Below, in pieces: positions 19,198 through 44,613 of a stretch of 64,000 bases of DNA (within the stretch, counting starts at the first letter, position 1; each line of letters begins with the position of its first letter). Origin of the DNA: an uncultured Eubacteriales bacterium (GTDB lineage: Bacteria; Bacillota; Clostridia; Oscillospirales; CAG-272); contig CAKSVM010000002.1 in assembly GCA_934503195.1 (NCBI GenBank), positions 850-64,849 of the forward strand. Direction: 5' to 3'. Below the pieces are notes generated by a model. That model worked only from the letters and a program-made list of their open reading frames with translations. It was not told the DNA's origin and did no database searches. The translations under genes were made by a program, and so were the position numbers.

Positions 19198-19212
19198 GGA
19201 AACGCTGATTTT

Positions 19213-19288
19213 AGGTTGTTTTCACGCAAAAAAGCCCATAAATCCAAGCCTTTTCCGCGTGAAAACTCCATTTATTCAGCTTATTCCT
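19213..19288 (+). repeat. Short intergenic repeat (about 76 nt), copy 1, in the fabF-fabZ spacer
   Basis: AGGTTGTtTTCACG..AAAAAGCCCATAAATCCAAGCCTTTT..CGCGTGAAAACTCCATTTATTCAGCTTATtCCT is near-identical to 38768-38843. Contains an imperfect hairpin (TTCACG.../...CGTGAA). Confidence 0.8.
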
Positions 19289-22914: not shown

Positions 22915-24009
22915 TCATTCGGTGAAGCGGACGTTTATATCGCCGCCCGAGGTCTTCGCGGTGAGCTTATACTGCGCGCGGGGATTTTCGGACGACTTCG
23001 GATAAGCGGTGCGGTCGGTTTCGGTTTCGATCTGGAAAAGCGATTCGGTGCCGAGAATCGAGCCGTCGATATCGCCGTTTGAGGTTTCGAAGTTGAATTT
23101 TTCGCCGAAGAGCCGCGAGAAGTCGAGCGACGCGTTCGAGGTGGCCGCCGAGAGACGCTTTACTGTGAGGTCTTCGAAGTTCAGGCGGCCGTTGCTGGTC
23201 TTGGCGTTTATCTCGGTCGCGGAGAGGCGCGAGAGGCTGATCCGGCCGTTTGAGGTCGAAGCGTCGATTTCATAGGCCTCGATGTCGGAGAGTGTGATAT
23301 GCGAGCCGGAGGTAGTGACGCTGAGCTTTTCGTCGAGCTTCAGGTTGCCGAGTTTGAGTTCGCCGTCAGAGGTCGAGACGCTGATATCGCCCGAAAAGTC
23401 CTTCGGGAGGTAGACGACCATCGCGAGTCCGGTGTATTTTGTGACGTGCTTTGTGGTGCCGAGCGAGAGCTTGTAGCCGAAGATATTGACTTCCTTTTTT
23501 TCGCCCTGACTCTGTTCGTCGCGGACGAGGAGGGTGTTGCTCGACGTTGAGAAATCGTAGCGGAAGTCGTCGCTTTCAAGTACGTCGACGATAATCGAGT
23601 CGTAATCGCCGGACGCGACGACGACGCTGCAACCCGAGACCGAGATATCGAGCGCGCGGTTGATCGCGGGGTCGAAGGTATAGCGTTTTTCTGAGAATCC
23701 GGACTCGGTGACGTCGATGGCGTCGAAGCTTCCGGGGAGCGCGGAATCGCCCTCTCCGGTATTTCCGGACGGTTCGGAGGTCTGACCGACGTTCTGTCCG
23801 CCTATTGAGATTCCGGACGAGTCGATTTTTATGTAGTCGGCGATATTGACGCCGTCATCGGTGATGTTTATCATATCGACAACCTGCGAGACACTGCCAG
23901 TGATCGCGCCCGCGATCCTCATGAAGATCGAACGCATTCCGAACGAGATCGCGATGACGACGATAAAGATCGTGATGACCGCGCGGCGTGTGAATTTTTT
24001 GAGGTTCAT
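22915..24009 (-). CDS. DUF4097-type beta-strand-repeat (putative adhesin) protein with N-terminal TM
   Basis: N-terminal TM helix AVITIFIVVIAISFG. C-terminal repeated motif: SNGxIxxxxL / TSGGDINV. Confidence 0.7.
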   Translation of the reverse strand: MNLKKFTRRAVITIFIVVIAISFGMRSIFMRIAGAITGSVSQVVDMINITDDGVNIADYIKIDSSGISIGGQNVGQTSEPSGNTGEGDSALPGSFDAIDVTESGFSEKRYTFDPAINRALDISVSGCSVVVASGDYDSIIVDVLESDDFRYDFSTSSNTLLVRDEQSQGEKKEVNIFGYKLSLGTTKHVTKYTGLAMVVYLPKDFSGDISVSTSDGELKLGNLKLDEKLSVTTSGSHITLSDIEAYEIDASTSNGRISLSRLSATEINAKTSNGRLNFEDLTVKRLSAATSNASLDFSRLFGEKFNFETSNGDIDGSILGTESLFQIETETDRTAYPKSSENPRAQYKLTAKTSGGDINVRFTE

Positions 24010-24110
24010 TTGATATCCTTTCGAATTAAATCGATAACGATTGCTATATATAATATTATAGAGCGAATAGCAAAACCAGTAAAGAATATTTCATGAACTT
24101 TCTGTAAAAC

Positions 24111-24386
24111 CAGGGGACGCCCCTGGACGCATACGTCAGGGTTAGTTTGTGCGAATGGGTTAATCTCGGGTCTATCAGTGGGGATTCGGAGTTGCCACCG
24201 CGTGGCAACTCCTTCACCCCGTTCGGGCTTACCGCCCTCACCTGCCGTGCGGGGAGCCCCCGCGGGCGGACGTCAGGGTTTGTGTCTGCGGATGTGTTAA
24301 TCCCGGGTCTATCAGTGGGGATTCGGAGTTGCCACCGCGTGGCAACTCCTTCACCCCGTTCGGGCTTACGCCCTCACCTCGCGTAG
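24111..24386 (+). repeat. Tandem pair (units A 24111-24249, B 24250-24386) of a structured repeat of about 130 nt
   Basis: The units share ...ACGTCAGGGTT...GGTCTATCAGTGGGGATTCGGAGTTGCCACCGCGTGGCAACTCCTTCACCCCGTTCGGGCTTAC.GCCCTCACCT. Each has a 5' hairpin and an 11-bp central hairpin (24188-24212, 24325-24349). Homologous units lie at 41259-41530. Confidence 0.85.
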
Positions 24387-24583
24387 AAGAACGGCAAATG
24401 ACCATAGAGGACGGCCGATGGACGCCGTAGGTGAGGGTCTTGACCCTCCCGCTTCCCATATCGGTTGAGGTGCATCCACAGGAACGACCACAAAACAAAC
24501 GCCCGCCCGGAGCCCCGATCCGGAGCCGCGAGCGAACGCCTAAAAAAATCCAGTGTATAAAGCTTTGGTGGAGGGTGGGGGTC

Positions 24584-24628
24584 AAGGGGGCGGGAACCGC
24601 TTTTCTCGAAAAGTGGTTCCCGCCCCTT
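24584..24628 (-). terminator. Strong GC hairpin downstream of kdgK (putative terminator, no clear U tract)
   Basis: AAGGGG(G)CGGGAACCGC-ttttctcgaaaa-GTGGTTCCCGCCCCTT, about 16 bp with one bulge and one G-T pair. Confidence 0.5.
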
Positions 24629-24634
24629 GTGAAT

Positions 24635-25666
24635 TTATCTGGCTATTCTTCCTGTGCCGTCGCCGCCGATGAGTTTTTCGACTTCTTCGACCGTGACGAG
24701 GTTGAGGTCGCCGTTTATCGTGTGCTTAAGGCAGGACGCGCCGACCGCGAATTCGAGCGCGGCTTTCGCGTCGCCCTTGGTAGCGAGGCCGTAGATGAGT
24801 CCGCCCGCGAAGGAATCGCCGCCGCCTACGCGGTCAACGATATCGGTGATGTCATAGACGCGGCTGCGCGCGAAGATCTTACCGTCGTTGATGCAGGCCG
24901 ACCAGACGTTGCGGTTTGCCGACTTCGACTCGCGGAGGGTGATCGCGACGGTCTTGACGTTCGGATAGTCGGCCATGACCTTATCGCTGATCTCCTTGTA
25001 GCAGTTGAGGTCGATCTCTCCGAGTTCGGGCTTGTTCGAGGAGCTGATTCCGAGAGCCTTCTGGCAGTCCTCCTCGTTGGCGATTACGACGTCGACGTAC
25101 TTGACGAGCTCGGGCATGACTTCGTCGGCGCGCTTGCCGTACTTCCAGAGCTTAGCGCGGTAGTTGAGGTCGCAGGAGGTGGTGACGCCGAGTTCCTTCG
25201 CGGTCTTCAGAGCCTTGATCGCCTCAGCGGCGACGTCAGCCGAGACTGCCGGGGTGATTCCGGTGACGTGGAACCATTTCGCGTCCTTAAGTATCTCGTT
25301 CCAGTCGAAATCGCCTTCCTTGATGTTGGCGAAGGACGAGAACTCGCGGTCGTAGATAACCTTGGACGGACGCTGGCACGCGCCGGTCTCAAGGTAGTAG
25401 ATTCCCATTCTGCCCTTGGTGTGAGCGATCGCCGAGGTGTCGACGTCGTACTTCTTGAGCTCGCGCTCGCAGGCCTTTCCGATGTCGTTGTCGGGAAGCG
25501 CGGTGACGAACTTCGCGTCAAGGCCGTAGTTCGAGAGAGAGACCGCGACATTCGCCTCGCCGCCGCCGAAGGTGGCTTCGAGTGTCGGCTGCTGGAAGAG
25601 CCGATCGTATCCGGGGGACTTCAGGCGGAGCATGATCTCGCCGAAGGTGACAAACTTGTTTTTCAT
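24635..25666 (-). CDS. kdgK: 2-dehydro-3-deoxygluconokinase (PfkB family)
   Basis: MKNKFVTFGEIMLRLKSPGY...FGGGEANVAVSLSNYG and C-terminal DRVGGGDSFAGGL. Typical KdgK. Confidence 0.88.
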   Translation of the reverse strand: MKNKFVTFGEIMLRLKSPGYDRLFQQPTLEATFGGGEANVAVSLSNYGLDAKFVTALPDNDIGKACERELKKYDVDTSAIAHTKGRMGIYYLETGACQRPSKVIYDREFSSFANIKEGDFDWNEILKDAKWFHVTGITPAVSADVAAEAIKALKTAKELGVTTSCDLNYRAKLWKYGKRADEVMPELVKYVDVVIANEEDCQKALGISSSNKPELGEIDLNCYKEISDKVMADYPNVKTVAITLRESKSANRNVWSACINDGKIFARSRVYDITDIVDRVGGGDSFAGGLIYGLATKGDAKAALEFAVGASCLKHTINGDLNLVTVEEVEKLIGGDGTGRIAR

Positions 25667-30566: not shown

Positions 30567-32639
30567 ATGTTTATTGAATCGAAAGGGATAAAAATCGGGT
30601 TCTCGGAGGATTTCCGGAAAATCACGTCGCTTGTCCTCGGAAACGAGGAGAGAATCGGCGAGACTCTGCCGCTCTTCTTTCTGCGGCTCCGCGACGCGAA
30701 GGGAAATCCGGTCATTCTGAACGGAGGCGACGCGAAAATATCCGCGTCCGACGTGGTATCCACGGAAAAACGTCTTACGCTGACATATCACTTTGAGCCG
30801 CTCGACGTGGTTGTAAGTGTTTCCGGCGGAGAGCGGATCGAATGGGGGCTTAAGGTAGAAAATCATTCTCCGCTCGCCGTCGAGTACGTCGACTTCCCGA
30901 ACATAAGCGTCGGGGGGAAGCTGAGGCGAAACGGCGGCGACGGCGCGATTGTCTCGTCCTACAACGAGGGGCTTTATGTCGACGACGCGTCGATGAAGCG
31001 CGACATGGCCGCGCCCGAGTATCCGTCGCAGGGCTGGTACATGATGTTCCCGTATATGCTTTCGTCGCAGTTCATGCTCTATCTCGCCGGGGATCACGGA
31101 CTATATATCGGCGTCCACGACACAAAGCGCGCGCCGAAGGGACTCGACTTTGCCTGCGGCGATAACTCGACGCTCTTCCGGATCCGGGATTTCGTCGGCG
31201 GGGAATACGGCTCGGACATCGCGCTTCCGCCGATCGCCTGGGAATACTTTGACGGCGGCTGGCAGGACGGCGCGGAGATCTACCGCGGATGGATGAACCC
31301 GACTCTCGGGATAAAGCCGCTCGCCGAACTCGACGTCCCCGACTGGTACAAGAGCGATATGCCGCTTGTGATCACATATCCCGTGCGCGGAATTCACGAC
31401 ATGGACGAGATGAAGCCGAACAAGCTCTTCCCCTACGAAAACGTCCTCCCGATCGTCAGAGAGCTTGAGGAGAGGACGAAATCGCGGATCATGGTGCTTC
31501 TCATGCACTGGGAGGGAACCGCTCCGTGGGCTCCGCCGTACGTCTGGCCGCCTTACGGCGGGGCGGAGAGCTTCCTTGAATTCATGAGAAAGCTTCATGA
31601 GCGCGGGGATCTTCTCGGCGTCTATTGCAGCGGACTCGGATTCACCGAGCAGTCGAATCTGATCGACTCTTATAATATGGTAGAAAGCGTTCTCAGAAAT
31701 CAGTTTGACCTCGGATTCTGCCGCGCGCCCGATCAGTCGCTCCCGCACAGCCGGATCTGTACCGGACAGCGCGTCGGATATGATGTCTGCCCGGCTTCGA
31801 GGGTCGGAAAGAAGCTGCTCGACGACGCGCTCGAACCGCTTCTGAAATCGGGCGTTGACTACGTTCAGGCTCTCGATCAGAATCACGGCGGCGGAATGTA
31901 CTTCTGCTACGCGAAGGATCACGGTCATCCCCCGGTCCCGGGCGGATGGATGACGAAGGCTTCGGCTGAGCTTCTGCGCGGCTGGAAGTCGATCTGCCCC
32001 GAAACGCTTCTCGGATGCGAATCGGCGGCGGCCGAGCCTTACATCGACTCGCTGAGGCTTTCCGACAACCGCTATGAGCTCTGCTACCGCCACGGAAAGG
32101 CGATTCCGCTCTATTCGTTCCTCTATCATCCGTATCTGAAGAACTTCATGGGAAATCAGGTGTCCTGTCCGCTCGATTACACGACCGGGCTGCTCGAATA
32201 CCGGCTCGCCTACTCGTTCGCGGCGGGAGATCTTTTGACGCTTGTCCTTAACGACGACGGCGAGGTTATGTTCCACTGGGGAATGCGCGACTTCTCGAAG
32301 ACGCCCGACCGGGACGAGATCATCGGCTTTGTGGCGAAGCTTCAGGAGTTCCACAAGCGTTATCCGGCGGTCTTCCGCGGAGCCGGAATGGTGAAGCCGA
32401 AGGCGTTTGAGTGCGACGAGATTGTGCTCGAAAAGCTCGGCGGCGGCGTTCCGTCCTACGACTCGGCGGTGCTTTCGACGGCCTGGAGAGTCGGTGAGAA
32501 GACGATCCAGATCTTCGTCAACTGGACGAAGGAGGAGAGAATCTGCCGCTTTGAAAACGGCACGGAACTGAGACTTTCGCCGCTTTCGGCCGGGGCGATG
32601 GAATTTGACTGCGAAGTCTGTTTGACGCCGATTGAGTGA
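30567..32639 (+). CDS. Large cytoplasmic protein of unknown family, probable glycoside hydrolase (DUF-type)
   Basis: 690-aa ORF with an AAGGAGG RBS and protein-like composition. It sits between an AraC regulator and an SBP. No catalytic motif that I can name. Confidence 0.5.
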   Translation: MFIESKGIKIGFSEDFRKITSLVLGNEERIGETLPLFFLRLRDAKGNPVILNGGDAKISASDVVSTEKRLTLTYHFEPLDVVVSVSGGERIEWGLKVENHSPLAVEYVDFPNISVGGKLRRNGGDGAIVSSYNEGLYVDDASMKRDMAAPEYPSQGWYMMFPYMLSSQFMLYLAGDHGLYIGVHDTKRAPKGLDFACGDNSTLFRIRDFVGGEYGSDIALPPIAWEYFDGGWQDGAEIYRGWMNPTLGIKPLAELDVPDWYKSDMPLVITYPVRGIHDMDEMKPNKLFPYENVLPIVRELEERTKSRIMVLLMHWEGTAPWAPPYVWPPYGGAESFLEFMRKLHERGDLLGVYCSGLGFTEQSNLIDSYNMVESVLRNQFDLGFCRAPDQSLPHSRICTGQRVGYDVCPASRVGKKLLDDALEPLLKSGVDYVQALDQNHGGGMYFCYAKDHGHPPVPGGWMTKASAELLRGWKSICPETLLGCESAAAEPYIDSLRLSDNRYELCYRHGKAIPLYSFLYHPYLKNFMGNQVSCPLDYTTGLLEYRLAYSFAAGDLLTLVLNDDGEVMFHWGMRDFSKTPDRDEIIGFVAKLQEFHKRYPAVFRGAGMVKPKAFECDEIVLEKLGGGVPSYDSAVLSTAWRVGEKTIQIFVNWTKEERICRFENGTELRLSPLSAGAMEFDCEVCLTPIE

Positions 32640-32655
32640 AAGGAAGCAATATATA

Positions 32656-34110
32656 ATGAAGAAATTTACGATTCTGCCCCTCGCGCTCGCGCTTATCCTG
32701 ACCTCCTGCGGGGCGGAGAAGCTTCCGGATGAGACGACGGCGGGGGATACGACGACCGCCGCCGGTGAGTCAGGCGAGACGACCGGACTTTCGGCCGAGC
32801 TTCCAGACGCCGACTACGGCGGGTATGAGTTCAGGGTTCTGATCCGCCCGAAGACGACGGTTGACTGGGCGGGGGATATGTTCCGCGAGTCGAGCGGCGA
32901 CGTGCTTGACGACGCGGTTTACAACCGGAATCAGGCGGTCGAGGAAAAACTCGGCGTGAAGCTTGTCAAGGTCGAGTCGTCCGACGCTAACTACGCGGGC
33001 GACGGAAAGAACTCTATCTTAGCCGGGGACGACGCGTATGATCTCATAATGCCGCACACGAGAACGGCGTTCGGCTACGCGGAGGAAGGACTCTGCCTCG
33101 ACTTCAACGATCTGCGCTACGTCGACCTCGACAAGCCGTGGTGGAACGCCGACGCGCGCGAGAGCTTCACGATCAACGATAAGCTCTATGTGATGACCGG
33201 GGACATCAGCTTCCAGCTTCTCGGGCAGTCGATGTGCCTCTTCTTCAACAAGACTCTGCTTGACAGGTACAACGAGGAATACCCATATCAGACTGTCGCC
33301 GACATGAAGTGGACGCTTGAGGAGTTCGGACGGCTCGTCGCGCTCTGCTCGGACGATCTCAACGGCGACGGCAGGATGACCGACACCGACGATCTCTTCG
33401 GTTACTCGACGCATCAGTGGCGCGGGCCGATGCAGGCTCTCGTGATCTGCGGCGGGCGGGTCGCTTCGAAGGACAAGAATGGCGATATCGTCCTCTCGCT
33501 GAACACCGAGCGGGTTCAGAAGTGCTTTGAGGACTTCTTCAAGATCGCCGACTCGGCGAACGTCAACCTCCAGATGAACAAGGAGAACGCCGCGAAGGGC
33601 GATTACTTCATCGACGTCTTCCGCGACGGACGGGCTTTGTTCCTCTCGGCGAATCTCAACAATGCGTCGTATATGCGGAGCATGAAGGACGATTTCGGAA
33701 TAATTCCGTCGCCGATGTACGACGAGTCGGACGGGAGATATTACACGAACGTCGACGGCGGTCTGCATCTGCTGATCGTGCCGAAGACGGCTTCGGATCC
33801 GGATCGGACGTCGGCGGTGCTTGAGGCTCTTTCGGCCGAGGGGTACAGCCGCGTCATGCCGGCCTACTACGAGGTCGCGCTGACGACGAAATATGTCCGC
33901 GACGAGCTTTCGGTCGCGATGATCGATCTTATACGCGACGCGCGGGTACTCGATCTCGGCTACAACAACAACGGACTCACCGGGCGGTTTGCGTCGTTCG
34001 GGTATTTCCTCGCGGACGATCCGAACCACGCCTTCGCCTCGTTCTACGCGAAATACGAGTCAGAGGTGAAGACCGGAATGGAGAAGGATCTCGAAAGCTA
34101 CGGAAAATAA
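32656..34110 (+). CDS. ABC-transporter extracellular solute-binding lipoprotein (large, sugar-type)
   Basis: MKKFTILPLALALILTSCG lipobox, T/G/E-rich linker, about 484 aa. Paralogous to 39786-41258 and to the pseudogene 34155-35124. Confidence 0.85.
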   Translation: MKKFTILPLALALILTSCGAEKLPDETTAGDTTTAAGESGETTGLSAELPDADYGGYEFRVLIRPKTTVDWAGDMFRESSGDVLDDAVYNRNQAVEEKLGVKLVKVESSDANYAGDGKNSILAGDDAYDLIMPHTRTAFGYAEEGLCLDFNDLRYVDLDKPWWNADARESFTINDKLYVMTGDISFQLLGQSMCLFFNKTLLDRYNEEYPYQTVADMKWTLEEFGRLVALCSDDLNGDGRMTDTDDLFGYSTHQWRGPMQALVICGGRVASKDKNGDIVLSLNTERVQKCFEDFFKIADSANVNLQMNKENAAKGDYFIDVFRDGRALFLSANLNNASYMRSMKDDFGIIPSPMYDESDGRYYTNVDGGLHLLIVPKTASDPDRTSAVLEALSAEGYSRVMPAYYEVALTTKYVRDELSVAMIDLIRDARVLDLGYNNNGLTGRFASFGYFLADDPNHAFASFYAKYESEVKTGMEKDLESYGK

Positions 34111-34154: not shown

Positions 34155-35124
34155 TCAGCGGTCGCGGTAGGCGCTGTTTATCTCGTCGAGCTTGGCGTTC
34201 GCGGTGTTTTCGTACTTCGCGTAGAAGGTCGGAAGGACGTTATAGTGTCCGTCGGCGCAGAGGGCTTCGATGATGATCGACGTGCGCTCGGGATCGGAGG
34301 CCGTCTTGGGGACGCCGATCATGTTGCATCCGGCGTCGACGTTCGAGTAATATCTGTCGTACGACTCGTCGAACTTCGGCCACGGGATGATTCCGAAGTC
34401 GGCCTTCATGTCGCGCAGATTTTCAGAAGCTTGATGTTCTGGTCGATGAAGAGCGCGCGGTTTTCGACGAAGGCCTTGGTGTTGACGTCGTTGTTTCCGT
34501 CGATGGCGATATTGACGCTTCCGCTGTCGGCGAGGGCGAAGAACTTATCGAAGATCTCGACCGTCCGCTCGGTGTTAAGTGAGAGGACAAGCTCGTCGTT
34601 TTCGTCCTTGGTGCAGATCCGCTGACCGCCCGAGTAGAGCACCTGAATCGGTCCGACCCACTGCGAGGTGACGTGGCCGAGGCGATCCGACTCAACGCTC
34701 AGGCTTCCGTTGCCGTCAAGATCCTCCGAGCCGTCGCGGACGTACTTCGAGAAGAGGTCGAACGTCCACTTTCCGTCGCGCACCGTGTCGTAGATCCCCT
34801 CGATTTTGAGATCCTCGAAGAGCTTCTTGTTGAAGAGCATCGCGTCGGCCGCGCCGAGATTCTGATAGCTGATGTCCCCGGCGCAGGTGTAGAGCTTATC
34901 CGCGACCGAGAGATTCTCGCGCGCGTCCTGGTTCCACCACGGCTTGTCGAGGTCGATATAGGGCGGCTGTTGCGCTCGTAGATCGCGTCGGTCATGATGT
35001 CTCCGTCGGCGTCCCCGACGTACATATCGGCGATGAAGGTATCGTCGTCGCGGATGTACATGACGAAATCGTAGCCGTTGTAGTTCTTTTCGGGAAGATC
35101 GTCGGAGATTTTTCCGTCGGTCGT
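34155..35124 (-). pseudogene. Decayed paralog of the solute-binding lipoprotein (5' truncated, frameshifted, internal deletions)
   Basis: Fragments in three frames align to the 32656 gene. DDLPEKNYNGYDFVMYIRDD aligns to ELPDADYGGYEFRVLIRPK. YIDLDKPWWNQDARE aligns to YVDLDKPWWNADARE. LSLNTERTVEIFDKFF aligns to LSLNTERVQKCFEDFF. FGIIPWPKFDESYDRYYSNVDAG...PKTASDPERTS aligns to FGIIPSPMYDESDGRYYTNVDGG...PKTASDPDRTS. There is no signal peptide; it starts directly after the AraC stop. Confidence 0.85.
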
Positions 35125-38759: not shown

Positions 38760-38767
38760 CATTATTA

Positions 38768-38843
38768 AGGTTGTATTCACGACGAAAAAGCCCATAAATC
38801 CAAGCCTTTTTCGCGTGAAAACTCCATTTATTCAGCTTATCCT
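38768..38843 (+). repeat. Short intergenic repeat (about 76 nt), copy 2, upstream of the SIMPL gene
   Basis: Near-identical to 19213-19288, in the same orientation relative to the downstream gene. Confidence 0.8.
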
Positions 38844-38859: not shown

Positions 38860-39501
38860 ATGAAAACCATCACTGTCAGAGGCACCGGGACTGCCTCAAA
38901 ACACCCCGATAAGATTACGCTGACCCTTTCGGTCGAGGGGAAGAGCGGCGATTATGAGACCGCGCTCTCCGAATCGTCAGGGCGTGTCGAAAAGCTGACC
39001 GCCGCCCTCGCCGCTTCGGGCGCGGGAAAGCCGAGGACGACCGACTATGACGTCCGCACCGAATATAAGAGCGTCCGTGACGAGGAAGGGAATTATACGC
39101 GGGTGTTTGACGGCTACGTGTCGGCTTATTCGCTGACGGTTTCGTTCGGACTCGATATGGAGCTGCTGGCCGCGGCGATAAGCGCGGTGTCGGCTTCGGG
39201 AACCGAACCGGGTATCGGAGTCAGCTTCGGGCTTTATGACCCTTCGTCGCTTGACGCCGAGCTTCTCAGGGCGGCCGCCGTGAACGCCAAGGAAAAAGCC
39301 GGGGTTCTCTGCGGGGCGATGGGAAAAAAGCTCGGAGAGCTGATCTCGATCGACTATGATTTCAGGAATCAGAATCCGGTTTCCCGGACGAATATCGAGT
39401 GCGCGGCTCTTGGCGCGGCTCCGAAGCGCGCGATGGCGTGCGTTGAACCCGACGATATAGAGGCGTCCGACTCGGCGTCGTTCGTCTGGGAAATAGTGTA
39501 A
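38860..39501 (+). CDS. SIMPL (DUF541) domain protein
   Basis: MKTITVRGTGTASKHPDKITLTLSVEG is the typical SIMPL N-terminus. 213 aa from the ATG at 38860. Confidence 0.7.
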   Translation: MKTITVRGTGTASKHPDKITLTLSVEGKSGDYETALSESSGRVEKLTAALAASGAGKPRTTDYDVRTEYKSVRDEEGNYTRVFDGYVSAYSLTVSFGLDMELLAAAISAVSASGTEPGIGVSFGLYDPSSLDAELLRAAAVNAKEKAGVLCGAMGKKLGELISIDYDFRNQNPVSRTNIECAALGAAPKRAMACVEPDDIEASDSASFVWEIV

Positions 39502-39541
39502 ATTCCTGTTACACTATAGTAAACGGCATTTACTTTGTGAA

Positions 39542-39576
39542 AAATCCCCGAATTAACATCGGGGATTTCTTGCGTT
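39542..39576 (+). terminator. Terminator after the SIMPL gene
   Basis: AAATCCCCG-aattaacat-CGGGGATTT followed by CTTGCGTT. Confidence 0.6.
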
Positions 39577-39684
39577 ATGACGGGATAATATATGAAGCGA
39601 ATTTTCCAGGTCTCGTCAAACCGCACAAGAATAATGAAAAGTGTATTATCGGTGTAAAATGATTGTTAAATCAAAATTACGCCC

Positions 39685-39713
39685 TTGACTTGAAGAGGAA
39701 AAAGTGGTATAAT
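39685..39713 (+). promoter_or_regulatory. Promoter of the second SBP gene
   Basis: TTGACT (39685-39690), 17-nt spacer ending TGG, TATAAT (39708-39713). Confidence 0.7.
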
Positions 39714-39785
39714 ATTACCGTAAATCAAGGGACGGCACGGGCTGACAAACCGGGGTCTCCCGAAAAGAAAAGGAAAGAAAAGTAA

Positions 39786-41258
39786 ATGAAAAAGGCATTA
39801 TCTCTCACCCTCGCGCTCGCTCTTCTCATGACGACGGCCGCGTCCTGCGGACAGTCGGGGAACGGCGGAAATGAAACGACCACCTCGGGCGGATCGACGA
39901 CCACAAACGGCACGACCGAACCCGAGACCACAAAGTCGCTTGTCGATCAGCTCGGCGACATCGACGAGAAGTACAAGGGACGCACCTTCACCTTCCTCGA
40001 CGCGAACGGTTCGCCGTCGATTCACGTCAATATCCCCGGCGACTCGGAGACCGGCGAGGTCATAAACGACGCGCTTTACGAGCGTGACACTTATATGGAG
40101 GATCGCTACGGAATCAAGATCGACTACGTTTCGGTTCCCAAGGCATCCGACGGATGCAATCAGCTCAAGAACTCGGTGCTGGCGGGCGACAACGACTATG
40201 ACTTCGTCATGTCCTGCCTGATGGGCGGCGCGCTCGGAACGATCGCGACCGAGGGAGTTCTCGCGAACCTCATCGATGTTCCGCACCTCTCGCTGACCGA
40301 TACGTGGTGGAGCCACTATATGTACGAAAATCTCCAGATTGACGGCAAGATGTACTATACGACCGGAGATATCACGCCGTCGCTCTATCAGATGCCGGCC
40401 TGCGTCTACGTCAACCGCGACCTCGTTGAAAAGTACGGAATCGACGTCGACTTCTACAAGGAAGTTACCGACGGCACATGGACGATGGACGTCCTCGGCG
40501 AGGCTACGAAGGGTCTTGATCAGGATCTCAACAACGACGGCGTTATGAGCGACGATGACGATTTCTTCGGCTTCGCGCCGCAGATGAACACGCTTATGAC
40601 CGAGTCTCTGCTTGTCGGCGCGGGCGTTCCGTTCTGCACGGTCGACAACACCAAAGACACGGTGACGATCGGATTTGACGATGAGTACACCGCGAACGTA
40701 ATGGAAAAGATCGCCTCGATCCTCCCGAAGGATATCACCTTCACGCCCTACGCGGTCAACACCGGAAAGGTCTTCAGCGAGGACCGCGCGGTTGTCACGA
40801 TGCACTTCGTCGAGAAGGCGATCAACACCTTCAGAAGCATGAAGAGCGATTATTATATTCTTCCGGTGCCGAAGTACTCGGCCGATCAGGACGGCTACCG
40901 TTCGTTCGTGAACGCGTGGATCCACGCCTTTGTGGCAATCCCGTCGAACGCGGATCTTGATTTCGCGGGCTTTGTGACCGAGGCTATGGCGAGATATTCC
41001 TACGAAAACATCCGTCCGAAGGCGTATGACATCACCTATAAGGCAAAGGCGGCGCGCGACGAGGAGTCGGCCGAGATGCTCGACATCATCTTCGACAACG
41101 TTTACCTTGACTTTGAGGCGGTATACGATTTCGGCAACATGATGAACTCGCTCCACTCGGTAGCTGTCGGAGACGCCGGACTGGCGTCGACCGTAGCGTC
41201 GAAGAAGGACTCTGCAAACACCGCGGCGGCAACGTTCGTCAAGTCGTGGCTAGGCTAA
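39786..41258 (+). CDS. ABC-transporter extracellular solute-binding lipoprotein (paralog)
   Basis: MKKALSLTLALALLMTTAASCG lipobox, T/G-rich linker, 490 aa. Shares blocks with the 32656 SBP (e.g. DYDFVM, WW.., LNNDG). Confidence 0.85.
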   Translation: MKKALSLTLALALLMTTAASCGQSGNGGNETTTSGGSTTTNGTTEPETTKSLVDQLGDIDEKYKGRTFTFLDANGSPSIHVNIPGDSETGEVINDALYERDTYMEDRYGIKIDYVSVPKASDGCNQLKNSVLAGDNDYDFVMSCLMGGALGTIATEGVLANLIDVPHLSLTDTWWSHYMYENLQIDGKMYYTTGDITPSLYQMPACVYVNRDLVEKYGIDVDFYKEVTDGTWTMDVLGEATKGLDQDLNNDGVMSDDDDFFGFAPQMNTLMTESLLVGAGVPFCTVDNTKDTVTIGFDDEYTANVMEKIASILPKDITFTPYAVNTGKVFSEDRAVVTMHFVEKAINTFRSMKSDYYILPVPKYSADQDGYRSFVNAWIHAFVAIPSNADLDFAGFVTEAMARYSYENIRPKAYDITYKAKAARDEESAEMLDIIFDNVYLDFEAVYDFGNMMNSLHSVAVGDAGLASTVASKKDSANTAAATFVKSWLG

Positions 41259-41530
41259 GCGGGGAGCCCCCGCTGGCGGACGTCAGGGTTAGTCTGTGCG
41301 GAATCGGTTATCGCGGTTCTGTCAGGAGGGATTCAGGAGTCACCGCTACGCGGTTACTCCTTCACCCGTTCGGGCTTATCGCCCTCACCTAAAGGCGGGG
41401 AGCCCCCGCTGGCAGACGTCAGGGTTAGTCTGTACGGAATCGGTTATCGCGGTTCTGTCAGGAGGGGGTCGGAGTTACCGCTGCGCGGTCACTCCTTCAC
41501 CCCGCTCAGGCTACGCCTTCGCCTGCCGTG
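41259..41530 (+). repeat. Tandem pair (units C 41259-41394, D 41395-41530) of the structured repeat of about 130 nt
   Basis: Starts 1 nt after the SBP stop codon. Same architecture as 24111-24386: 5' hairpin GCGGGG-agc-CCCCGC and central hairpins at 41336-41360 and 41471-41495. Confidence 0.85.
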
Positions 41531-41592
41531 ATACTGCCGGGCGTTAGTTTTCGGCATGACGTCGCGAAAGAAACAGAGACAAATATTTTTGG

Positions 41593-41634
41593 AAAATCCC
41601 GGGGGCGGCTCCGGGATTTTTCACGCACTTTTTT
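41593..41634 (+). terminator. Rho-independent terminator downstream of the SBP gene and the repeat pair
   Basis: AAAATCCCGG-gggcggct-CCGGGATTTT followed by TCACGCACTTTTTT. Confidence 0.75.
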
Positions 41635-41668
41635 GTCTTGATAAGTCAAAATTCGTCGTAATTCCGGA

Positions 41669-41697
41669 TTGACAAGGGGCGCGTTTGGTAGTATAAT
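41669..41697 (+). promoter_or_regulatory. Consensus promoter of the MATE gene
   Basis: TTGACA (41669-41674), 17-nt spacer, TATAAT (41692-41697). Confidence 0.7.
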
Positions 41698-41795
41698 ATT
41701 CTCCGTAATTTTCATTCCGTGGGGGCGATATTATCTTTACCGCGAAAAAAAGAAAATCCTCAGTCGACCTTGTCTCGGGCGGCGAGGGAAAGGTT

Positions 41796-43199
41796 TTGTT
41801 AAAATTCTCCGCGCCGATTATATTCTCGTATCTCCTTCAGCAGATCTATACGATCAGCGACGCCGCGATCTGCGGGCAGACCCTCAGCGCGGATGAGGTC
41901 GCCGGGGTCAATGACGTATTTCCGCTGATGTTCATCTTCCTTCAGTTCGCGTTCGGCTGTACGGCCGGGTTCTCGGTAATAACGTCGCTGAAGCTCGGCG
42001 AGGGCGACCGGGAAGGCGTCCGCAAATCCTTCGCCGCTCAGCTTGTCTTAGGCGGCGTTGTGACGCTGATTCTGACCGCTCTCGCGATCCTGACTCTCGA
42101 TCCTCTGCTCCGCTTCATCGGGCTTTCCGAGGCGAATTTCGGCGTCTGGAGGGCGGCGTACGACTACTCGCTCGTGATCTTCATCGGAATCTTCGCTCAG
42201 CTTTACTATAATCTCATCTGCTCGGTGCTGCGGAGTCTGGGCGACTCGGTGACGCCGCTTGTCTTCCTCTTCATCTCGACCGCGCTGAATATCGGACTCG
42301 ATCTTCTCTTCATTATGACCTTCGGGTGGGGAGTGATCGGCGCGGCGTCGGCGACCGTGCTGGCGCAGGCTCTGAGCGCGGCGGCCTGCCTTGTATATAC
42401 CTTCGCGAAATATCCCGAGCTGAGGCTTTCGCGCGGGGATTTCGGCTTCGATCTTCCGCTTCATCTGCGGCATTTGCGGCAGGGGATACCGCTCGGCTTG
42501 CAGTTTTCGGTGCTGGCGGTCGGAATCATCGTGATGCAGTCCGCGCTTGTGAGCTTCGACCTCGGGGCGGACGGAATCATGGCGGCGGGGAATCCGGCTC
42601 AGAACGGCTTCGGCGCGGCGAACAAGCTGAACAACTTTCTGATGTGTCCGATGAGCGCGCTCGGGGCGGCGATTGTCAGCTTCAACGCGCAGAATCTCGG
42701 CGCGGGGCGTCAGGATCGGATCCGGCGCGGGACGATAAAGAGTCTTCTCATCGGACTCTGTATGTACGTTGTCCTCGGCGGAATCGGGCTTCTGCTGACC
42801 ACTGGCGGCGCGTATCAGTATATCTTCATGAGCGCGGACAAGATCAGCGTCGAGTCGATAAGGTTCGGGAACATTTATCTTTACGTGGATCTTGCGATGT
42901 ACTTCATGCTGGCGGCACTTTTCGTGCTGAGGTCAGGCGTGCAGGGAGTCGGGCATTCGGAGTTCACGCTTCTCGCGGGATGCGCGGAGCTTACGGCGCG
43001 GATTCTGATATGCAGTCTGCTTCCGGCGGCGGTGAACGGCGGCGCGATCGATTCCTCGGCGTCGACTCTGGCGTATGCCGCGCTCTGCTTCGGCGATCCC
43101 GGCGCGTGGACTCTGGCGGTTCTGTCGCTTCTCTGGCCGACCGGGAAGTATCTGCTTTGCGGGAAAAGGGCGGAGAAGGCCGGAACGGGGGAAAAGTGA
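41796..43199 (+). CDS. MATE family efflux transporter
   Basis: 12-TM profile. N-terminal LLKFSAPIIFSYLLQQIYTISDAAICGQ is the MATE signature. The start is uncertain: a TTG at 41796 with GAGGG 7 nt upstream, while homology-like sequence (VDLVSGGEGKV) continues upstream without a canonical start. Confidence 0.85.
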   Translation: MLKFSAPIIFSYLLQQIYTISDAAICGQTLSADEVAGVNDVFPLMFIFLQFAFGCTAGFSVITSLKLGEGDREGVRKSFAAQLVLGGVVTLILTALAILTLDPLLRFIGLSEANFGVWRAAYDYSLVIFIGIFAQLYYNLICSVLRSLGDSVTPLVFLFISTALNIGLDLLFIMTFGWGVIGAASATVLAQALSAAACLVYTFAKYPELRLSRGDFGFDLPLHLRHLRQGIPLGLQFSVLAVGIIVMQSALVSFDLGADGIMAAGNPAQNGFGAANKLNNFLMCPMSALGAAIVSFNAQNLGAGRQDRIRRGTIKSLLIGLCMYVVLGGIGLLLTTGGAYQYIFMSADKISVESIRFGNIYLYVDLAMYFMLAALFVLRSGVQGVGHSEFTLLAGCAELTARILICSLLPAAVNGGAIDSSASTLAYAALCFGDPGAWTLAVLSLLWPTGKYLLCGKRAEKAGTGEK

Positions 43200-43361: not shown

Positions 43362-44498
43362 TTATTCGGAAAAAGCCGGAATCCGATCTAAAACCCTGAC
43401 CGCGCGTTCCTCTTCGCGAGGGTAAAGATGCGCGTAGGTCTGCCATGTCGTTTCGACGTTTGAGTGACCGAGACGGCGCGCGACTTCCTGAATGTTTATC
43501 CCCTCGTTCGCGAGAAGCGAGGCGTGCGTGTGGCGAAAATCGTGTATTCGGATATGCGGCAGTCCGGCGGCTTTGGAGTAAGTGGTATTCCGGAGTTCGA
43601 TTGAGGCGTCGCGAAGCGCACGAACCCCACCGCATACCCGGAAGTCCTCGGTGAAACGCGAATCTGCCGCCTGAAGCTTTCTCTGCTCGGAGAGGACAGT
43701 CATCAGCGGCGCGGGAATCTGAAGATCGCGGTAGGACGAGCGGTTCTTCGGAGAAGTTTCGACATCCTCGCCTCGGAGCTTCTGAGTCAGACTCCGGCGG
43801 ATGTGCAGGACATTGCCGTCGATGTCCGACCATTTCAGCGCGTTTATCTCGCCCTTGCGTGCGCCCGTGTAGACCGCAAGCGCGAAGAAGGTGTAATAAC
43901 CGTAGTCGGCGATGTCGCCGGACTGTGCGGCGTCATGCGCGGCTGTGAGGTACTTTCCGACCTGCTCGGCGGTGTAGAAGTGCAGACGCTCCCGCGGGAG
44001 ATCAAATTCGGAGTTCCGGAAGTTGCCGAGAGTCTTAAGCGGGTTTTTCACGATGTAGCCCATCCGTTCGGCGAAGCTCAGCATGGCGGAGAACTGCGTG
44101 AAGTAGTTCTGACAGGTCTTGCAGGAATATCCGCGGGCGGCGATCGAGTTCTTCCATTTCTGCGCCTGCGGGAGATCGAAGTCAGCGAGCTTCACGCCGC
44201 CGACCTCGGGCAGAATGACGTTCTCGAACATCTGGCGTTTCTTGTCGAGAGTCGTCCCGCGGAACTCGGAGCGGACAGAGTCAATATACTCATCGTAGAG
44301 CGACGAGAGGGTCAGCTTCTTTTCGACCGGAGACTTTTTCAGCTCCTCGGAGAGCCTGCGTTCGAGGTCCTTCGCCTCGGTCGCGCCGTAAGCGACGCGC
44401 GTCAGCTGGCGCGGCTTGCCGGACTGGTCGACGTAGTTGATCCGGACGCGGTACTGCTGTTTGCCGTCCTTTTTCTGGTCGGTTTTGTAGATCGGCAT
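43362..44498 (-). CDS. Tyrosine-type site-specific integrase
   Basis: MPIYKTDQKK... SAM-like N-terminal domain. The C-terminal catalytic region has ARKGE, HDFRHTHASLL, LGHSNVETTWQTYAHLY (R..HxxR..Y). The ATG at 44498 with an AAGGAG RBS is preferred to the TTG at 44519. Confidence 0.92.
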   Translation of the reverse strand: MPIYKTDQKKDGKQQYRVRINYVDQSGKPRQLTRVAYGATEAKDLERRLSEELKKSPVEKKLTLSSLYDEYIDSVRSEFRGTTLDKKRQMFENVILPEVGGVKLADFDLPQAQKWKNSIAARGYSCKTCQNYFTQFSAMLSFAERMGYIVKNPLKTLGNFRNSEFDLPRERLHFYTAEQVGKYLTAAHDAAQSGDIADYGYYTFFALAVYTGARKGEINALKWSDIDGNVLHIRRSLTQKLRGEDVETSPKNRSSYRDLQIPAPLMTVLSEQRKLQAADSRFTEDFRVCGGVRALRDASIELRNTTYSKAAGLPHIRIHDFRHTHASLLANEGINIQEVARRLGHSNVETTWQTYAHLYPREEERAVRVLDRIPAFSE

Positions 44499-44613
44499 TT
44501 TGTGGAACTCCTTTCGCAAAGTAAAAGTCCGTGAATTCTGCTTATCCCGGATAATGGGCGCGTACTCTCACGGACTGGCTGATATTTTTCGCGGACGTCT
44601 CCGCTATGGGTAT

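Follow-up and report, generated by a model that had tools for sequence, protein, structure and literature searches.

The 64,000-nt stretch of DNA analysed here (the window) contains four homologous units of ~137 nt (135–139 nt by alignment), all on the + strand and arranged as two head-to-tail pairs, one behind a solute-binding-protein (SBP) gene and the other between a pfkB gene and a DUF4097 gene. On balance, these units are probably members of a lineage-restricted family of non-coding, hairpin-rich repeats of the REP/BIME, BOX, MIRU and bcr kind, and the family looks to be previously undescribed and uncatalogued. Comparison with relatives points to a lineage-restricted insertion of variable copy number and not to a conserved part of the SBP gene, since the orthologous site in one relative is empty and close strains differ in the number of units that they carry. 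"Interspersed family" is here a description of two loci. The organism is known solely from metagenome assemblies, and its homologs come from metagenome-assembled genomes (MAGs) of Clostridiales or Clostridia.

Two tandem pairs in two intergenic settings

Units A (24111–24249, +, 139 nt) and B (24250–24386, +, 137 nt) make up the pair at the DUF4097/pfkB locus (locus 1), and units C (41259–41395, +, 137 nt) and D (41396–41530, +, 135 nt) the pair at the SBP locus (locus 2). An earlier note on this DNA had placed four + strand units here, with C beginning 1 nt after the SBP stop codon, and alignment, nhmmer (E ~1e-40 for each unit) and a covariance model agree with that placement. With filters off, the covariance model scores A at 136, B at 152.8, C at 131 and D at 147.5 bits (131–153 bits on the + strand, against ≤34 bits on the − strand); neither strand of the 64-kb window yields a fifth unit, even a degenerate one. 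The core patterns of the units would be expected by chance 0–0.12 times. Pairwise identity is 84% for both A–B and C–D and 72–77% between loci, and A and B have an identical 65-nt tract in common.

Each unit follows the same plan: a short G+C hairpin (P0; GCGGGGAGCCCCCGC in C, the variant CAGGGGACGCCCCTG in A), 5–7 nt, and then a multi-stem domain of ~115 nt closed by helix P1 (ACGUCAGG paired with CCUGCCGU). The P1 domain encloses a variable hairpin (P2), a long hairpin that comprises P3 (GGGG/CCCC) and P4 (GGAGU...ACUCC) with an internal loop, and P5 (GGGC/GCCC). In unit D, P0 occupies 41396–41408, the closing-stem arms ACGTCAGG and CCTGCCGT lie at 41416–41423 and 41522–41529, and the central hairpin GGAGT...ACTCC lies at 41471–41495; the predicted fold of this unit has an energy of −67.5 kcal/mol (z = −3.4). 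Unit C has the weakest closing stem among the copies.

The junction that had been reported as shared by the A and D ends is present in approximate form (CACCTGCCGTG in A and CGCCTGCCGTG in D, with CACCTCGCGTAG in B and CACCTAAAGG in C). On their left sides the arrays abut TGTAAAA| at locus 1 and GGCTAA| at the SBP locus, which have AA alone in common. We rejected two candidates for additional partial units, namely a shortened third unit in the tail after D and a relic unit to the right of B, as the local alignments score inside the shuffle range.

The SBP gene (39786–41258, +; 490 aa; Pfam SBP_bac_1) is preceded by a promoter-like site at 39685–39713 (+; 11/12 in the promoter scan, with TG) and ends in a TAA at 41256–41258, an end codon that its orthologs share. 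Unit C starts at the base directly after this TAA. About 60 nt beyond the end of D lies an intrinsic terminator (41590–41623 plus a T-run to 41633, +; 15-bp stem, −23.8 kcal/mol, z = −5.0), which, in keeping with the earlier note's description of it as the only convincing one, is the sole terminator-like site on the + strand within 39500–42000. The intervening tail (41531–41589, +) shows no significant similarity to a unit on either strand, and in alignment to the empty site of a relative ~35 nt of it are without counterpart. The promoter scan finds no promoter-like site between the SBP stop codon and the units, neither a promoter nor a terminator separates neighbouring units, and the perfect TTGACA-17-TATAAT promoter of a MatE gene (41669–41697, +) lies downstream of the SBP terminator. 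Because nothing resembling a promoter or another terminator interrupts the stretch from the SBP stop codon through C and D to the terminator, the natural inference is that the two units would be co-transcribed with the SBP gene as a 3′ UTR of ~375 nt, and the sequence is in line with their earlier assignment to a co-transcribed SBP 3′ UTR. Elsewhere in the window, the SBP gene at 32632–34110 has an inverted, 81–82% complementary partial copy just downstream (33114–33761 versus 34330–34964), which is probably a pseudogene fragment; metagenome gene callers have placed two open reading frames without a Pfam match in this region.

At locus 1, units A and B lie between a terminator-like, T-tailed hairpin of the pfkB gene (~24495–24545, −, recognised by reading the sequence) and a promoter-like site of the DUF4097 gene (24055–24083, −; 10/12) that is 27 nt from unit A. 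Both Pfam-annotated neighbours, DUF4097 (22915–24009) and pfkB (24635–25666), are on the − strand; the units are antisense to them, confirming that the orientation of the element is independent of its host genes. A weak promoter-like site on the + strand (9/12) lies upstream of unit A at 24031–24059, and the pair has no + strand terminator. The left edge of unit A adjoins TGTAAAA, at which promoter homology with relatives ends. A long G+C-rich hairpin (24580–24626, −) immediately follows the pfkB stop codon, ahead of the T-tailed hairpin, and one close strain (L029) has a different and still longer palindrome directly after its pfkB stop. Promoters and terminators are undisrupted by the units at both loci, and the two insertion points, a gap between stop codon and terminator and a gap between terminator and promoter, are places that tolerate extra DNA.

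Empty sites and single-unit alleles in relatives

A contig (L018) that encodes an SBP ortholog with 81% amino acid identity carries no unit at the corresponding position. Its terminator (GCTCCGGGAT...TTTT) begins ~17 nt after the stop codon and is orthologous to that of the window, and the promoter behind it (TTGACAAG...TAGTATAAT) is the same one as in the window. Measured against this empty site, the window has an insertion of ~310 nt that consists of the two units and ~35 nt. A more distant homolog (L019, 67%) likewise runs without units from its stop codon straight to a terminator. In another strain (L034), with an SBP from the 90%-identity cluster of the window protein, unit C is reduced to a stub of 34 nt, made up of a different P0 hairpin (GCAGGGTGCGACCCTGC) and then ACGTCAGG, and one complete D-like unit, F, comes next. 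Unit F is ~96% identical to D and has a compensatory G:C to C:G swap in P0, and the tail and terminator behind it match those of the window. The terminator is conserved in both L018 and L034; it predates the insertion and is orthologous to the terminator of the empty site.

At locus 1, the strain L029 (DUF4097 protein 95% identical) has a single unit, E (L029:281–419, −; 87% identical to B), the junctions of which (TGTAAAA|GCGGGG and CCGTAG|AAGAAG) are identical to those of the window array. The earlier note had allowed that its reading might fail for want of homologs in relatives; units do occur at both of these loci in close strains. Of the same-strain assemblies, one (L021) contains a single locus-1 unit that is a chimera of A (5′ end) and B (3′ end), and another (L020) breaks within the 65-nt tract common to A and B. 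This pattern reflects either a real deletion allele or assembler confusion, and the L021 unit may be an assembly collapse. Three independent metagenome contigs end in a unit or at its edge (L020 at position 1, L022 and L010 at their ends), showing that the units break short-read assemblies; MAG-based catalogues probably under-represent elements such as these repeats.

More distant relatives (L030 and L033, 63–67% amino acid identity) have no unit at locus 1 and a different gene order around DUF4097. In these genomes an AraC gene precedes DUF4097, and in L030 a convergent pfkB gene lies 58 nt after it. In the lineage of the window, by contrast, the block with pfkB directly adjoins the promoter of DUF4097, and the unit marks where the two meet (compare window 24009–24640 with L030 9900–11130 and L033 1090–1240). 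The promoter homology with L030 and L033 ends at TTTTACA, the edge of unit A, and this, together with the change in gene order, marks locus 1 as a synteny breakpoint.

These comparisons also bear on how the pairs formed. Similarity is highest within pairs (84% versus 72–77%), A and B have their 65-nt tract in common, and single-unit alleles occupy identical junctions. Local duplication, unequal recombination or slippage is thus the most likely source of the tandem pairs, and not, as had been proposed, repeated site-specific head-to-tail insertion. A "type 2" P0 hairpin, present both in the window (locus 1) and in L034 (locus 2), hints at repeated exchange among copies, possibly including unseen ones. 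Since homologous units occupy two unrelated intergenic contexts, some transfer mechanism is needed. The wider proposal of an inserted or mobile repeat is strengthened by the empty site in L018 and the copy-number differences in L029 and L034.

Fold, coding potential and searches for further copies

We assessed the fold on six distinct units, A–D of the window plus E and F. Across its 41 pairs, 90.5% of cells are standard pairs, compared with 42–51% when the 3′ partners are slid by 1–3 columns. Changes on both sides occur in five pairs distributed over four helices (P0, P2, P4, with two, and P5), and none of 500 column shuffles reached the observed covariation score. As the six sequences are closely related, the covariation evidence is moderate and not strong. 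The + strand folds better in four of five units (by 1–9 kcal/mol over the − strand in A–D), and the G–U pairs of the fold are valid on the + strand only. The stability of the + strand and the strand difference in the covariance model indicate that folding is a real, strand-specific property of the units.

Conservation is uneven along the unit. The block ACGTCAGG is invariant in all six full units and CTCCTTCACC in five, the exception being E, where this block is rewritten. Pairing in P0 is kept across four sequence variants. P2, a helix rich in G–U pairs, forms well in C, D and F alone and poorly in A, B and E. Unit E differs through a run of four substitutions that convert the internal loop separating P3 from P4 (AUUC/UUCA) into four perfect pairs (ACTCCGAATCCCC), giving a near-perfect hairpin stem of ~19 bp with one mismatch. 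This change looks like a templated quasi-palindrome correction, a mutational event at the DNA level.

The compensatory changes, the invariant unpaired blocks and the confinement of G–U pairs to one strand could mean that the units are under selection for an RNA function and are not neutral. The units might constitute a strand-specific structured RNA, with the two loci as paralogous RNA genes. Such an RNA could work in cis, as a part of the 3′ UTR by which the SBP mRNA is stabilised or processed, or in trans, as a small RNA (3′-UTR-derived or independently transcribed). Compensatory pairs in four helices, G–U pairs confined to the + strand, the greater + strand stability of most units, the invariant unpaired blocks and the persistence of P0 pairing through its variants all argue in this direction, and the weak promoter-like site before unit A would suit an independent transcript. 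A precedent also exists, as classic REP sequences follow the SBP genes malE and hisJ and protect the upstream mRNA, a stabilising effect for which PMC3184786 cites Stern et al. (1988). We nevertheless consider an RNA function unlikely. The orthologous SBP 3′ end of the 81% relative does without units, close strains differ in unit number, P2 is poorly formed in half of the units, and the conserved CTCCTTCACC block is rewritten in unit E. The locus-1 units, moreover, lie antisense to the gene on either side and lack a + strand terminator, and neighbouring units have no promoter or terminator between them. By analogy with REP sequences, a stabilising effect of C and D on the SBP mRNA is possible; the native terminator hairpin is still present behind them.

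Membership in a known RNA family was rejected. No Rfam 15 family matches the units, either in a scan of the whole window at gathering thresholds or at permissive thresholds at both loci, where the scans returned noise (E ≥ 0.03, far under the gathering scores), and ARAGORN finds no tRNA-like gene. The sole Rfam match of the whole window is a type-P5 twister ribozyme (Twister-P5; 48766–48824, +; 55.3 bits versus a gathering score of 37.6) situated between early genes of a prophage. The prophage extends from an integrase gene (43362–44519, −) to past the window end and has terminase, capsid, scaffold and other structural genes. A link between the units and this neighbouring prophage or its integrase was considered and rejected: the two are separated by an intact MatE gene that has a promoter to itself, and the pattern scans of IMG/VR did not find the units.

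The units also carry no coding signal. One reading frame is open throughout all of them, but its profile gave one marginal match (E = 3.4e-4) among 1.84 billion proteins, and a synthetic six-frame query of the units against proteins gave nothing at E ≤ 0.001, which together argue that the units are neither coding nor commonly mis-called as genes. The SBP frame past its TAA stays open for 90 codons across both units, to a TGA at 41529–41531 (window 41256–41531, +); an open frame of this length has an estimated chance of ~8% at the local G+C content and is probably meaningless.

To date, copies are known at two loci only, and none has been found beyond this species cluster. We scanned DNA collections with a 21-base pattern, ACGTCAGGGTTN{55,80}CTCCTTCACC, and obtained seven matches in GTDB genomes and seven in JGI metagenomes, approximately the number expected by chance; the matches that were read or scored are coding, for example in ABC ATPase genes, and were rejected as copies. 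With this overly strict pattern we thus find no copies in 185,579 GTDB species representatives or the JGI metagenomes, an absence that is weak evidence of rarity because the pattern would miss even unit E of the 95% relative. Three patterns gave 0 matches in IMG/VR, and blastn gave 0 matches in plasmids (PLSDB) and phage records. Contig extension past the window ends revealed no further copy, nor did the covariance model when run on 161 kb of related contigs, so that no third locus is known. The window does contain another repeated sequence, an intergenic segment of ~75 nt present twice at ~98% identity (19210–19284 and 38766–38840, +), just upstream of a fabZ-like gene in one case and of a SIMPL gene in the other. 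This segment holds a 10-bp inverted repeat (GTTTTCACGC...GCGTGAAAAC); it may act as an operator common to the two genes, specify a small RNA or belong to a second family of small repeats.

Relationship to known repeats and implications

The bcr repeats of the Bacillus cereus group provide a close parallel within the Firmicutes. They too are intergenic repeats of 100–160 nt (bcr1 ~155 bp) that are transcribed and keep a multi-hairpin fold through compensatory changes, and their distribution is non-syntenic even between close strains (PMC3184786), often falling in 5′ or 3′ UTRs (PMC3184786, PMC3446304). The units resemble bcr1 in the non-syntenic presence and absence exemplified by L018 and in the five compensatory pairs. 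They differ in that bcr1 has 5-bp flanking direct repeats and tens to hundreds of dispersed copies, whereas the units show no such duplication and were examined at two loci; the two elements are dissimilar in sequence, and the units typically come in tandem pairs. About half of bcr copies lie in UTRs, but a correlation with mRNA decay rate was found for bcr3 only, one of 18 repeat families in B. cereus (PMC3446304).

REP/BIME sequences of Enterobacteria are likewise G+C-rich stem-loops located just 3′ of coding regions and form modular or mosaic arrays. They are, however, single palindromes of 20–40 nt that usually occur as inverted pairs, whereas the units are ~137 nt long, have five or six helices and are arranged head-to-tail, so that the REP/REPIN format does not describe them. 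A loose similarity is to GTAG/CGTC-tagged REPs, which have a conserved CGTC-containing block next to the hairpin (PMC3733652): the units have CGTC in the conserved ACGTCAGG block, 5–7 nt from P0, and units B and E end in GTAG. The CGTC-tagged families have 8–9-bp stems that start with A–T and a CCA tail (PMC3733652). The P0 stems are all G–C, with neither the A–T start nor the CCA tail; this departure from the stem, loop and tail that characterise the CGTC-REP families speaks against membership in them.

Pneumococcal BOX elements and mycobacterial MIRU-VNTRs are, like the units, short non-coding intergenic modules in tandem with a copy number that varies between strains, and BOX elements additionally have a predicted stable secondary structure and lie between genes of transcription units (PMC3184786). 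Head-to-tail intergenic units of strain-variable number are what we observe at both loci. The modules themselves differ from the units in size and sequence, with BOX having a boxA–boxB(n)–boxC organisation and MIRUs often carrying small overlapping ORFs. MITEs (Correia/NEMIS, RUP and ERIC) are similarly small, intergenic, co-transcribed with neighbours and matched by empty sites in relatives, but are defined by terminal inverted repeats and target-site duplication. Neither is present here: the first 40 nt of each of four arrays compared with the reverse complement of the last 40 gave scores equal to shuffle means, and the longest word common to the 10-nt flanks is 2–3 nt. The units are thus not a classical MITE.

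The lack of inverted repeats and target duplication is expected of PATEs, the IS200/IS605-derived elements with subterminal hairpins, although these features are not specific to that family. The units could be relics of a non-autonomous, PATE- or REP-like single-stranded DNA transposon mobilised by a Y1/HUH transposase (IS200/IS605 TnpA or RAYT) encoded elsewhere, through hairpins folded on the lagging-strand template. Each end does have a hairpin nearby (P0 on the 5′ edge, P5 ~12 nt short of the 3′ edge), folding is strand-specific, and the CGTC-containing block beside a G+C hairpin loosely recalls tagged REPs (PMC3733652). The DNA-level look of the quasi-palindrome change in unit E is in line with this reading as well. 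At both loci the folding strand is the + strand, whose richness in G would make it the template of the lagging strand, though with two loci this orientation argument has no statistical weight. We regard such an origin as rather improbable given that the units far exceed REPs in length and number of stems, that P0 misfits the CGTC families and that the left junctions share AA only. Furthermore, no transposase, reverse transcriptase, HUH, Y1/RAYT, TnpA or TnpB gene is found among the Pfam-annotated genes of the window and ~160 kb of related contigs. Still less probable is a new class of folded, strand-specific elements that have their own function, be it a mobile RNA that acts in trans or is competent for processing or a substrate of an HUH-type single-stranded DNA recombinase (P0 plus ACGTCAGG); if true, the latter option would imply an unrecognised hairpin-directed recombinase with a recognition module composed of the variable P0 and the invariant ACGTCAGG block. 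Finally, one event of ectopic duplication or gene conversion could have copied an intergenic segment to a second site, where tandem duplication then took place locally, with neither mobility nor function; this reading would suit the two known loci, the null scans of public collections and the position of the locus-1 unit at a rearrangement breakpoint, but is very improbable in view of the 23–28% divergence of inter-locus copies with helices kept by compensatory changes, the repeated exchange suggested by the "type 2" P0 hairpins and a precise placement at stop codon and promoter edge that is typical of repeat families.

We thus favour a small repeat family with the following history. As comparison with relatives shows, one element inserted between the SBP stop codon and a pre-existing terminator, and another sits between the pfkB terminator and the DUF4097 promoter, at a synteny breakpoint. 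Strain and unit comparisons show that each site gains and loses units, presumably through unequal recombination or replication slippage between neighbouring units. RNA polymerase that starts at the SBP promoter would read through both units to the terminator at 41590–41633, yielding an SBP 3′ UTR dense in stable stem-loops. If the mRNA were affected, for example by slower 3′-to-5′ decay, this would be a by-product and not the reason for the existence of the element.

On present evidence these repeats reveal no new mechanism. Their interest lies in the poor state of catalogues of small structured repeats for uncultured Clostridia of the gut. Such repeats create strain-level length polymorphisms, mark rearrangement breakpoints, and can lengthen and restructure the UTRs of neighbouring genes. 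The example described here offers a clean empty site, alleles of differing unit number and a calibrated covariance model.
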